From: Candidatus Anderseniibacteriota bacterium
GTDB lineage: Bacteria; Patescibacteriota; Andersenbacteria; UBA10190
Length of the DNA: 64,000 nucleotides
Direction: 5' to 3'
Assembly (NCBI GenBank): GCA_016197005.1
Contig: JACPWO010000004.1
Span: forward strand, 6,305 to 70,304
This document shows positions 37,769 through 40,817 of the stretch, piece by piece. The notes below the pieces were generated by a model. It was given only the letters and a program-made list of their open reading frames with translations, searched no databases and was not told the DNA's origin. Both the position numbers and the translations under genes were made by a program. The stretch's first letter is position 1; every line of letters starts with the position of its first letter.

Positions 37769-37797
37769 TTGACATTTTAGTAATTTATGACTATAAT
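37769..37797 (+). promoter_or_regulatory. Perfect-consensus sigma-70 promoter TTGACA-17-TATAAT driving the DGR target gene
   Basis: Both hexamers match consensus exactly and the spacer is 17 nt. The promoter lies 138 nt upstream of the start codon. Confidence 0.55.
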
Positions 37798-37829
37798 TAG
37801 CAGTTCTTTATAATAGAATATCACTGTGT

Positions 37830-37882
37830 ATGAGACGAGTATTTTGCAGTTTTTTTGTAAGACTCCAGAATACTCGTCTCAT
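37830..37882 (+). promoter_or_regulatory. Perfect 14-bp inverted repeat ATGAGACGAGTATT-N25-AATACTCGTCTCAT in the 5' UTR of the DGR target gene
   Basis: The repeat was seen directly in the sequence. It lies between the promoter and an AAGGAG SD. It is not followed by a U-tract, so it is not a terminator. Confidence 0.4.
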
Positions 37883-37935
37883 CAGAGATTGGTCGTTTCC
37901 CGACGGTTCGGGTAAGTTCTTCTACAAGGAGAAGG

Positions 37936-38841
37936 GTGATGACGATGACCACATCGATCACATCCGGTCAGAAGGTTCAGTACTTGAGAATGGTCGAAGA
38001 CGCTGCACGACGTGCAGCCAATTTGGCCCTTGAGAAGGTTGAAAGCCTCGACAAGACAGGTGCACAGCGACTGATCGAGCATGGCGACGAATTCGAGACA
38101 GCAATTGCCGAGCTCGTGGTTGCTAAGACGAGAGAGTTATCTCTCTCCAATCAGTTCGCCAACGAAGAAGTACCGTCAAACTACGGCTACCTCTCCGGCT
38201 ACAAAAAGCCGAAGGGCATGACCGAACAGACCAATCTTCTTCGTCAGCTTTTCCCTGGTATCGGTTTCGCCGACGAGCAACTGGCTACGCGCGACCTGCC
38301 GAAAGGTGCTGAAGGCTACTTTGCCATTCCGCGTTGGGAAACGTTGGCACCGACCTATGGCGAAGCCGTGCAGAAAGTGCTGGATATGATCAAAAAAACC
38401 CGCAACGGTAAGCTTTACAACTACTGTGAAGGGAAACTTGGTCCGCAGTATCTGCGTCAGCACGCCAAAACGTCAAAAGCGTTTCAAGTGCTCGGTGATC
38501 AACAAAAGGGCTACGACATTCTCGTGGTACCCTGCCAGTTTGGTCTCCGTCACAGAGGTCGTTCAGTGCGCCGAGCACGAGAAGTCATGATCGCCAGCGA
38601 ATTTGCTCTCGGAGCTTTCGCGAACGGCATCATGATTTTGACTCATCCGGAACGTCTTCAACACGATAACGATCTTTGGATCGACGGTGGTGGCGACGAA
38701 TTTTCTCCGGATGCCGGTGGTCGGTTCGACTTCGCGCCTAGCTTCGTCTTCGATGGTGGCAGGGTCAGGTTCGACGCGTTCTGGGTCCTCTATGCCCTTG
38801 ACCTCTATGGCTCTCCGTCTGGGTTCTGTCCGCAGAAGTGA
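37936..38841 (+). CDS. DGR target (variable) protein; the C-terminal approximately 45 aa are encoded by the variable repeat
   Basis: The 301-aa ORF's 3' end is a near-copy of the downstream TR, with differences only at TR adenines. The C-terminus reads ...GSPSGFCPQK. The GC content is visibly higher than that of neighbouring genes. Confidence 0.75.
   Translation: MMTMTTSITSGQKVQYLRMVEDAARRAANLALEKVESLDKTGAQRLIEHGDEFETAIAELVVAKTRELSLSNQFANEEVPSNYGYLSGYKKPKGMTEQTNLLRQLFPGIGFADEQLATRDLPKGAEGYFAIPRWETLAPTYGEAVQKVLDMIKKTRNGKLYNYCEGKLGPQYLRQHAKTSKAFQVLGDQQKGYDILVVPCQFGLRHRGRSVRRAREVMIASEFALGAFANGIMILTHPERLQHDNDLWIDGGGDEFSPDAGGRFDFAPSFVFDGGRVRFDAFWVLYALDLYGSPSGFCPQK
38704..38835 (+). repeat. DGR variable repeat (VR)
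   Basis: The VR aligns to 39218..39350 with about 23 mismatches, all at positions where the TR has A. The final 28 nt are identical (CTATGGCTCTCCGTCTGGGTTCTGTCCG). Confidence 0.8.
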
Positions 38842-38894
38842 TGCTTGTTCCTTGAACGCTTGGATCTTTTGTTTTCTTGATCCTTCGCGTCGAC

Positions 38895-38930
38895 GGGGTT
38901 TTCCACAGTTTGGAGACCCCGTTTTCTTTT
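38895..38930 (+). terminator. Hairpin plus U-tract downstream of the VR (intrinsic terminator; DGR targets commonly carry a hairpin 3' of the VR)
   Basis: GGGGTTTTCC-loop-GGAGACCCC forms a 9-bp stem with 2 G-U pairs and is followed by GTTTTCTTTT. Confidence 0.5.
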
Positions 38931-39217
38931 ACTTAATTTTTCTTAAACCATATATACTCATCTTCGAGTTAAGCTCATGTACGACCGTTTACGGATTGTC
39001 GTCGTTTACACTCTTTCTCTTCACGAGAAAAAGCCAGAATCCGGCTGATCACGCGTTTGCCGGAGCGAGCTTGTACGAGGAGATACTGCTTGTCTTTGCT
39101 CAAGGCAAACTTCGCTAATAAGCGGGGTGTTGCCACAAACAATACAGGAATAAGAGGCGTTCACTGATGCCTAGCATCGCCACCTCAAGTTCCAGTGACT
39201 CAGATAGGCAAAGACAA

Positions 39218-39350
39218 ATATCCGGATGCCGATGGTCAGTTCGACAACGCGCCTAACTTCAACTTCAATGATGGCAAGGTCAAGTTCGACACGAACTGGG
39301 TCAACAATGCCAATGACAACTATGGCTCTCCGTCTGGGTTCTGTCCGAAG
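39218..39350 (+). repeat. DGR template repeat (TR), A-rich with many AAC/AAT codons
   Basis: No ATG-initiated ORF is present. An in-frame TGA lies at 39164-39166 upstream. Asparagine-like AAC/AAT triplets occur wherever the VR differs. Confidence 0.8.
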
Positions 39351-39366
39351 TCTCTCCTTATATAAA

Positions 39367-39393
39367 GGCATCCATAGACGGATGCCTTTTGTT
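39367..39393 (+). terminator. Perfect 7-bp hairpin GGCATCC-ATAGAC-GGATGCC plus TTTTGTT immediately 3' of the TR
   Basis: The hairpin was seen in the sequence. It may terminate a TR transcript and/or the antisense avd. Confidence 0.45.
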
Positions 39394-39736
39394 ATCTAAT
39401 TGAACGGCTCCATCCGCCGAGTTGTCGGCCGATCTCATCAATAATTTCTTGCAACACAATGTATTTTTTGTTGTCGAGCGTTTTTGTATCTTTCATGAGA
39501 CGAACCAATAGTCGGAGTAAATTCAGTTTGGCACTGATCTGCTCAAGAGTTGTGGCTTTATTCACGGTTTTCGCATAGCCAGCAAGAAAAAGGTTTTCAA
39601 TAATATCCAGGATGAGTCGCTCACTCCACTCATAAATTGTAAAGCGATCTTGTTTCGGCACAGTCTTACGGTACTCGTGAAAAGTTTTGTAGAGTTCGTA
39701 GGCTTTCTTAAGAATAGGAATATCGCTATCGTTCAT
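39392..39736 (-). CDS. avd: Accessory variability determinant (Avd), a four-helix-bundle protein of DGRs
   Basis: The 114-aa protein aligns by eye to Bordetella phage bAvd: VPKQDRFT~IPRKHGVA, ENLFLAGYAKT~ELFIVAGKSNQ, LLRLLVRLM~LRFWLRFLAG, QEIIDEIGRQLGGWSRSI~QVLIAEVGRILGSWI. Confidence 0.7.
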   Translation of the reverse strand: MNDSDIPILKKAYELYKTFHEYRKTVPKQDRFTIYEWSERLILDIIENLFLAGYAKTVNKATTLEQISAKLNLLRLLVRLMKDTKTLDNKKYIVLQEIIDEIGRQLGGWSRSIR

Positions 39737-39741
39737 AGGCT

Positions 39742-40817
39742 ATGAGGAGATATGATAATTTGTTTAAAAAGGCCATTGCTCCCGAGTATCTCTTTACTGC
39801 CTGGGACGAGTTTCACAAAGGAAAGAGGAATAAACCGGATGTCCTGCGTTTTGAAATGGAGCTTGAACAAAATATCTTTCAACTGCATCGCGAGCTTCAG
39901 AACAGAACATACAAACATGGAGCGTATACTGGGTTTAAGATCTGTGATCCCAAGCTGCGCCATATACATAAAGCGACTGTGCGCGACCGAGTAGTACACC
40001 ATGCAGTGTTTAAGGTACTGAACAGGGTTTTTGAACCGACGTTTATTGCTGATTCGTTTTCGTGTCGGATCGGCAAAGGTACGCATAAAGGCGTGGCCAG
40101 AGTTCAGCAGATGATCCACCAAGTTTCCAAGAACCAAACACACCCATGTTATGCGCTCAAGTGTGACGTCCGTAAATTTTTCGATACTGTTGATCACGAC
40201 ATTCTCCTGGTAATACTCCGCAGGAGAATTACCGATCCTGCCATGCTGTGGCTTCTTGAAGAAATTGTTGAAAGCTATATAAGTGTGATTTCGAGAGAGA
40301 GAGAGAGAGAGAGAGAGAGAGAGAGACGGCGCGCTGCCGCGCTGGCATACCTATCGGCAATCTGACCAGTCAGATCTTTGCTAATATCTACATGAACGAA
40401 TTTGATCAGTTCGTAAAGCATGAGCTGAAAGTAAAGCATTACGCCAGGTACACCGACGACTTCGTCGTTATAGCTGACAGTAAAATGTATCTGGAAAACT
40501 TAGTATTGTCTATTGAAGAAATGCTATCTAAGCGGCTTAAACTGGCGCTGCATCCGGATAAGATCGCGATGCTACCTTATCATCGGGGTATAGATTTTTT
40601 GGGCTATGTCATTTTTCCTCACTTCCGCCTTATTCGCAGTCGGACGAAGAAACGTATATTGCGGAGACTCAAGCAAAGAATGGAACAGTATGAAATGGGC
40701 GTTCTTTCAAAACAATCGATCTACCAATCGTTGCAATCCTATCTCGGTGTTTTGTCACATGCTAGTGCCTATAAGTTAGCGCGAGATATAAAAAATAGAT
40801 TTGGATTTCTTTCTTAA
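39742..40817 (+). CDS. DGR reverse transcriptase, reading frame split in two (39742..40365 and 40392..40817) by a frameshift inside a (GA)17 tract
   Basis: RT motifs are present: SFSCRIGKGTHKG, KCDVRKFFDTVDH, the DGR-specific IGNLTSQ (I/LGxxxSQ, which replaces QGxxxSP) and YTDDFVV. The frames join if the tract has 16 or 19 GA units. Confidence 0.75.
40293..40326 (+). repeat. (GA)17 dinucleotide microsatellite inside the RT gene
   Basis: 34 nt of perfect GA repeat. In frame it would encode (Arg-Glu)n. It is the site of the frame break. Confidence 0.9.

Follow-up and report, generated by a model that had tools for sequence, protein, structure and literature searches.

The 64-kb window analysed here (the whole stretch of DNA under study, 64,000 nt of contig JACPWO010000004.1) comes from a metagenome-assembled genome (MAG) of Candidatus Andersenbacteria (Patescibacteria) and carries a diversity-generating retroelement (DGR) in which the reverse transcriptase (RT) gene is put out of frame by a pure (GA)17 simple sequence repeat. 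A (GA)n tract occupies the same loop of the RT in at least 120 metagenomic relatives, in frame in some and out of frame in others. We consider it probable, at roughly 0.6, that this tract acts as a contingency-locus switch on the RT and hence on DGR mutagenesis. The proteins encoded in the window are identical in two NCBI MAGs of Candidatus Andersenbacteria, those with proteins MBI1833393.1 and MBI3251161.1, and in one Logan assembly.

The DGR and its interrupted reverse transcriptase

The principal parts of the cassette, in window coordinates, are as follows.

37936-38841, + strand: target gene, 301 amino acids (aa) from a GTG start, with the variable repeat (VR) at its end
38701-38835, + strand: VR, the 3' end of the target open reading frame (ORF), a gapless match to the template repeat (TR)
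38805-38832, + strand: 28-nt block identical in VR and TR, 61% GC, at the 3' end of the repeat, resembling an initiation of mutagenic homing (IMH) sequence
39216-39350, + strand: TR, non-coding and rich in A (37 of 135 nt), same strand as the VR
39392-39736, - strand: avd, accessory variability determinant, 114 aa, divergent from the RT
39742-40292, + strand: N-terminal part of the RT (fingers, motifs 1-3), RVT_1 profile positions 8-107
40293-40326, + strand: (GA)17 simple sequence repeat inside the RT gene, at the loop that joins motif 3 to IGNLTSQ
40327-40817, + strand: C-terminal part of the RT (IGNLTSQ, YTDD, thumb), RVT_1 profile positions 118-205

The RT is split over two ORFs (39742-40365 and 40392-40817) because the (GA)17 tract shifts the reading frame; joined, they encode a protein of 357 aa. 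The N-terminal frame runs through the tract to a stop at 40365, giving a 207-aa product, and the C-terminal frame contains no start codon before 40392. Loss of 2 nt or gain of 1 or 4 nt restores an RT of 357-359 aa, with the removal of a single GA unit giving 357 aa; an in-frame RT requires 16 or 19 GA units, and the assembled tract has 17. The original prediction for this locus, made from the sequence alone, described a complete DGR with an RT in "halves". Every part it named is present, but the RT is not intact as assembled, and its two ORFs represent one gene interrupted by the repeat, a cause that the prediction did not give. The possibility that the split RT works as two polypeptides was considered and rejected: the start at 40392 lies past IGNLTSQ, and relatives are split in both wrong frames.

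No other dinucleotide repeat in the window reaches six units, and the tract has the form expected of a contingency locus, being a pure intragenic repeat with a unit not divisible by three and a length far beyond chance. The loop between motifs 3 and 4 has about 27 residues here, encoded by the out-of-frame (GA)n, compared with only about 8 at this position in Brt, the RT of Bordetella phage BPP-1, and residues 181-205 of the repaired RT are modelled with confidence scores (pLDDT) below 50. Changes in tract length would be harmless in themselves, because every frame of (GA)n reads RERERE without stops and the repeat falls in a disordered surface loop. The 207-aa N-terminal ORF with its out-of-frame tail is identical in the two NCBI MAG records, and the homologues retrieved include no in-frame form with 90% or more identity to this RT. 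The corresponding Logan contig (SRR12113416, 86,530 nt) gives no tract length; it ends inside the tract, at about window position 40321, as expected for an assembly with k = 31 and a repeat of 34 nt. Tracts of this kind will break unitig-level assemblies systematically at DGR RT genes.

Comparison with solved structures and profile models identifies the RT as a DGR enzyme. The repaired protein scores 150 bits against 8ub7_A, whereas a group II intron RT reaches 87 bits and a retron RT 28 bits, so that the comparison which the original prediction had proposed as its test favours a DGR. The entry 8ub7_A is BPP-1 Brt (100% identity by tblastn) and is the best relative of this RT with a solved structure. 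The RT scores 409 bits against a PHROG phage RT family, and the predicted IGNLTSQ and YxDD motifs were both found, the latter as YTDD. Assignment to a retron or defence RT was rejected, as the PADLOC retron and DRT models score well below both the generic RT model and Brt; the name given by NCBI to the RT fragment is "Retron-type reverse transcriptase". The repaired RT aligns end to end with thousands of Patescibacteria RTs of 349 aa at up to 74% identity.

The VR and TR align at a fixed offset of 515 nt without gaps, with about 380 nt between the end of the VR and the start of the TR. They differ at 26 of 135 nt, and all 26 mismatches fall at TR adenines, 26 of the 37 adenines being substituted. 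Within a 130-nt core, every mismatch (22/22) occupies codon position 1 or 2, where the TR codons are mostly AAC or AAT. Chance is unable to yield such an adenine-only pattern, which is the signature of a DGR template/variable pair, and the 26 differences show that targeted rewriting of the VR has occurred in this lineage. These data bear out the earlier description of the VR as a near-copy of a non-coding TR 380 nt downstream. The VR can be extended to 38692 only by accepting one non-adenine mismatch at 38700. At the other end, the 28-nt block, CTATGGCTCTCCGTCTGGGTTCTGTCCG, is followed by one A-to-C difference at 38833, and VR and TR are wholly divergent from 38836; from the likeness of the block to the BPP-1 IMH we infer a putative role in homing. 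Neither a third copy of the repeat, a second VR, nor a paralogue of the target was found in the 64-kb window. The consensus VR is the same in the two MAGs and the Logan assembly because the target protein is identical in them. Taken together, the cassette is a chromosomal Patescibacteria-type DGR.

Repeat tracts in related reverse transcriptases

Relatives of the interrupted RT were sought in metagenome contigs by a pattern of at least seven GA units and, after 6-36 nt, codons for GNLTSQ. This pattern is independent of the upstream reading frame and matched at least 120 loci. Frames at the loci recovered were then called by tblastn of the N-terminal and C-terminal halves, with duplicates and doubtful cases removed, and the frame counts apply to the matches listed. 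Among these, 77 of the 94 non-redundant repeat-bearing loci are out of frame (45 in one wrong frame and 32 in the other) and 17 are in frame, a share below the one third expected by chance (17/94; binomial p = 0.0014). Repeat-free DGR RT loci from IMG/VR, chosen by the motif 4 pattern alone, served as a control: none of the 107 was out of frame, 106 being in frame and one containing a stop. Frame state differs sharply between repeat-bearing and repeat-free loci (Fisher p = 5e-39). The repeat-plus-motif pattern itself has a single match in IMG/VR viral contigs, so the repeat-bearing RTs are essentially non-viral.

The same pattern is visible among annotated proteins. Fragments of 185-240 aa make up 104 of the best 120 protein-database matches to the N-terminal half; of these fragments, 82 end at or just past an RE repeat, and both out-of-frame tails occur. 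In many full-length homologues the same loop holds an in-frame RERERE, the length of which varies, while others are repeat-free. Tract lengths range from 15 to 51 nt, with medians of 20-21 nt that are alike in all three frame classes. Tract length also differs between close relatives: L164 and L168 have flanks about 95% identical and tracts that differ by exactly three GA units, and the L129/L150 and L114/L198 pairs likewise differ in tract length.

An assembly or sequencing artefact, in which the real tract is in frame and the low-complexity repeat has been mis-sized, appears very improbable. Dinucleotide repeats are prone to PCR stutter, and the k = 31 Logan contig does stop within the 34-nt tract, both of which would favour such an error. 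The out-of-frame ORF is, however, identical in two MAG records, both wrong frames are seen among the relatives, the median tract length of the relatives lies below the usual final assembly k-mers, in-frame tracts of like length assemble well, and the control RTs show no out-of-frame members at all.

Several other features of the related loci were recorded. In L114, L157, and L198 (protein LSLSLSRERERE), the (GA)n run of the RT loop is immediately adjacent to a (CT)n run, with which it forms a perfect palindrome, and both runs differ in length between L114 and L198. A second repeat hotspot lies about 50-70 nt after the RT stop codon in L005, L007, L016, L017, L034, L050, L051, L053, and L062, falling inside the RT C-terminus in L016 and L053. 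Its repeats are (GGAT)n in five loci, with 8-14 units in four of them, as well as (GGTT)11, (ATAG)8, and (GA)9-11, and AT-rich promoter-like sequence often follows; these repeats, too, may be phase-variable. Poly-G tracts, 9-11 nt long, occur at the RT 5' end, in the short divergent region between avd and RT, or near the 3' end of avd (L061 3977-3985, L072 3984-3992, L076 652-661, L039 3630-3639, and L054 3629-3639), and are candidates for another class of slippage site in the cassette. In L142 the segment comprising the repeat and GNLTSQ is present twice (592-659 and 713-779), 120 nt apart, which may reflect a local duplication or a misassembly. Two further matches, L141 and L159, fit the DNA pattern and come from repeat-rich contigs but are not RT genes.

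Integrity of out-of-frame loci and the proposed switch

In 73 of 80 out-of-frame loci, each half of the RT is recovered as one uninterrupted match. Between pairs of out-of-frame lineages, the ratio of nonsynonymous to synonymous substitution (dN/dS) is 0.06-0.19 in both halves, at synonymous divergences (dS) of about 0.8-1.6. These comparisons indicate that the out-of-frame RT halves stay open and under purifying selection. Also, 33 out-of-frame loci retain TR/VR pairs with 83-100% adenine-specific mismatches, like the in-frame loci. The loci that carry the tract are otherwise almost repeat-free, and pure tracts of up to 51 nt are found at this one specific loop.

This evidence bears directly on whether the element is dead, in which case the RT would be a pseudogene created by chance repeat expansion, the VR a fossil, and the family a collection of many independent decays. 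Such a history would account for the RT being out of frame in every assembly of this organism, for the invariant VR, and for the extra lesions present in some relatives. We nevertheless regard it as quite improbable, since most out-of-frame loci are free of other lesions, both halves show low dN/dS between out-of-frame lineages, avd is intact, and pure tracts are kept at one loop of loci that are otherwise nearly without repeats. The absence of any non-adenine mismatch between TR and VR over 135 nt, seen likewise in many out-of-frame relatives, also argues against it. Plain decay and assembly error are both poorly supported.

Under the switch that we favour, the TR would be transcribed and, by homology to BPP-1, an RT-Avd complex would produce cDNA while misincorporating opposite adenines; this cDNA would replace the VR and so rewrite about 20 codons of the ligand-binding face of the target's C-type-lectin-like domain. 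Slipped-strand mispairing at replication would add or remove GA units, and a lineage would alternate between RT-ON (16 or 19 units) and RT-OFF (17 units) states. The OFF state would preserve a useful VR variant, and rare ON cells would restart diversification. In the population sampled here the element would be OFF and the VR fixed, and the invariant VR of the three assemblies is consistent with this.

An alternative is that the out-of-frame RT is expressed by recoding, either through RNA polymerase slippage that gains or loses a GA unit in the transcript or through a 2-nt shift of the ribosome, in which P-site pairing would be preserved. In that case the tract would hold RT at low levels as a constitutive throttle, with no on/off switch. 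Several observations fit this explanation. The two wrong frames are nearly equal in number and in-frame loci few, which would be expected if the DNA frame were nearly irrelevant or full expression harmful; the RT halves of out-of-frame loci are intact and under purifying selection; their TR/VR pairs look as fresh as those of in-frame loci; and (GA)n is free of stops in any frame. Precedents are also established, namely the deletion of a dinucleotide at GAGAG in transcripts ("molecular misreading") and the rescue of frameshifts by slippage on homopolymers. However, bacterial RNA polymerase is not known to slip efficiently on dinucleotide tracts, in-frame alleles occur in many lineages, and the VR is the same in three assemblies, as would be expected of an inactive element. 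We therefore consider recoding fairly unlikely.

A number of observations weigh against a contingency switch. In-frame alleles are fewer than the third that neutral slippage would produce, so that an extra assumption is needed, such as selection for the OFF state, and this deficit is fitted equally well by RNA-level or ribosomal slippage. No near-identical loci in opposite frame states were found in the sample, in which flank identity of 88% or more is limited to two exact duplicate pairs. Of the best 80 genome loci, 8-10 carry the tract and every repeat is in frame, although these loci were ranked by match quality, which favours intact genes. Extra lesions are present in L168 and L119, and stops in L104, L146, and L181, showing that some out-of-frame copies are decaying. 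Finally, the two MAG records and the Logan run perhaps derive from one site, and as the assemblies may share a source, n = 17 is less well reproduced than it would seem.

Contingency loci have been reviewed for host-adapted bacteria, including the tracts of Haemophilus, Neisseria, and Campylobacter and the CT/GA dinucleotide tracts in outer-membrane protein genes of Helicobacter pylori (PMC11868660, PMC3315296), and are described for phages in a recent preprint (PMC12633550). Like these, the DGR tract is a pure repeat within a gene, its unit is not a multiple of three, both ON and OFF frames occur among relatives, its length differs by lineage, and the flanking parts of the ORF are intact and under selection. 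Unlike them, it would gate a hypermutation polymerase rather than a surface antigen or restriction enzyme, and would be a switch on a mutator; also, it is found in Patescibacteria and is known from assembled sequences.

Cassette layout, chromosomal setting, and significance

Beyond the principal parts, three further elements were found in the cassette.

37769-37797, + strand: promoter-like site of the sigma-70 type, TTGACA-17-TATAAT, matching the consensus at 12/12 positions, upstream of the target gene
38892-38923, + strand: stem-loop with a 12-pair stem and a T-run after it, 50 nt past the target stop codon
39364-39389, + strand: hairpin of 10 bp with a U-tract, between the TR (14 nt away) and the avd stop codon, which it abuts

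The cassette order is therefore promoter-like site, target with VR, TR with its 3' hairpin, avd on the minus strand, and RT. From its match to the consensus we infer a putative promoter function for the site at 37769-37797, whose first base is also where the cassette of the original prediction begins. The stem-loop at 38892-38923 could, from its form and position, be a terminator, a DGR-type hairpin downstream of the VR, or both. The hairpin at 39364-39389 likely marks where the TR RNA ends, terminates transcription in both directions, or does both. Of 103 related loci, 85 have a strong hairpin after the TR, compared with 17 of 103 shuffles, and its stem sequence varies by locus. Two small ORFs overlap the TR, one of 56 aa (39195-39365, + strand), which is the TR read in the VR frame, and one of 66 aa (39171-39371, - strand), which was annotated by the gene caller of one assembly; both are probably not genes.

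The target was predicted as a 301-aa ORF with a C-terminal VR, and it is present in that form at 37936-38841; NCBI annotates a 300-aa version from an ATG at 37939. By its fold, the protein consists of a helical N-terminal part and a C-type-lectin-like C-terminal domain, and the VR lies within the latter, as is usual for DGR targets. Its family counts more than 2000 proteins (2164 homologues) of about 290 aa, which are conserved over the body of the protein and hypervariable in the last ~45 residues. No Pfam domain was matched by the target, and no N-terminal signal peptide was detected, the sole moderately hydrophobic stretch being modelled inside the fold. The proposal in the original prediction that the target mediates interaction with a partner cell finds no support in these results, which show a C-type-lectin-like fold but neither a domain match nor a signal peptide. 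The target differs from TvpA of Treponema denticola and other C-type-lectin targets in belonging to no Pfam family and in lacking a lipoprotein or signal sequence.

The predicted Avd-like gene is real, as the protein scores 63 bits (cut-off 40) against the Pfam family bAvd (PF22296) and also matches PHROG 3206, annotated as "Avd protein of DGR"; the prediction did not state that the gene lies on the minus strand. No sequence match to Avd was found in the PDB. The gene adjoins the RT upstream on the opposite strand in 146 of 148 related loci, so this odd-looking layout is the norm of the clade. The avd and RT start codons are only 5 nt apart (39736-39742), a tight divergent arrangement that is conserved, and each promoter must therefore lie inside the other gene.

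The element is chromosomal, given that it adjoins housekeeping genes that within the window include polA, uvrB, rpoB, rpoC, ftsK, efp, murB, and a sigma-70 gene; glycosidase and transporter genes are also present. This matches the housekeeping context originally described, and the organism is likewise of the Candidate Phyla Radiation (CPR), as had been suggested. A search of the whole window with Rfam (gathering thresholds) and a tRNA scan gave no match. The only long homopolymer in the window, a G8 at 796-803, lies in an ORF (148-3807, 1219 aa) with two Laminin_G_3/concanavalin-A-like lectin domains that probably encodes a large surface protein, and might be a further slippage site. Two ORFs are unrelated to the DGR but notable for a small CPR genome: that at 11405-13894 encodes a TrwB-like type IV coupling protein, and in that at 23497-25377 a NeuB domain, similar to sialic-acid synthase, is joined to a xylose-isomerase-like TIM barrel.

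A comparison with the prototype DGR of BPP-1 (mtd-VR, avd, TR, brt) shows that the two systems share adenine-only TR/VR substitution, an RT with I/LGxxxSQ and YxDD motifs, Avd, a VR at the C-terminus of a protein with a C-type-lectin fold, a GC-rich block shared without change by VR and TR at their 3' ends, and a hairpin past the VR. The BPP-1 element, in contrast, is carried by a phage, and its genes are arranged on one strand as target-avd-TR-brt, whereas the order here is target-TR-avd-RT with avd divergent; the Andersenbacteria cassette also has a hairpin with a U-tract directly after the TR. DGRs in CPR bacteria are already known, Paul et al. 2017 reportedly being the original survey, and the cassette itself is no new kind. 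It shares with other CPR/Patescibacteria DGRs its host phylum, RT clade, target family, and architecture. The RTs of Patescibacteria DGRs cluster together (PMC11661182). Thousands of RT homologues at 55-75% identity are found here under names such as Parcubacteria, Paceibacterota, and Nomurabacteria. The CPR DGR surveys that we searched contain no mention of a repeat-interrupted or phase-variable RT, and no report of a repeat-gated or phase-variable DGR RT, or of phase variation in Patescibacteria, was found in the searchable literature.

In conclusion, for the large clade of Patescibacteria DGRs as a whole we lean, a little less firmly than for the switch itself, towards the view that (GA)n stochastically gates hypermutation, that flanking tetranucleotide and poly-G tracts may do so as well, and that most cells would be frozen while a minority diversifies. 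Where DGR surveys demand an intact RT ORF, most loci of this kind are probably missed or misclassified. The regulation of DGRs is largely unknown, and unrestrained mutagenesis would keep ruining useful VR variants; if our interpretation is true, a repeat switch on the RT would allow a cell to fix a variant through slippage that breaks the frame, and to resume the search through slippage that restores it. This would be the first contingency locus reported in Patescibacteria, as far as the literature was searched, and would constitute a two-tier form of bet-hedging, with phase variation gating a mutator, that is undescribed for DGRs or for CPR bacteria.

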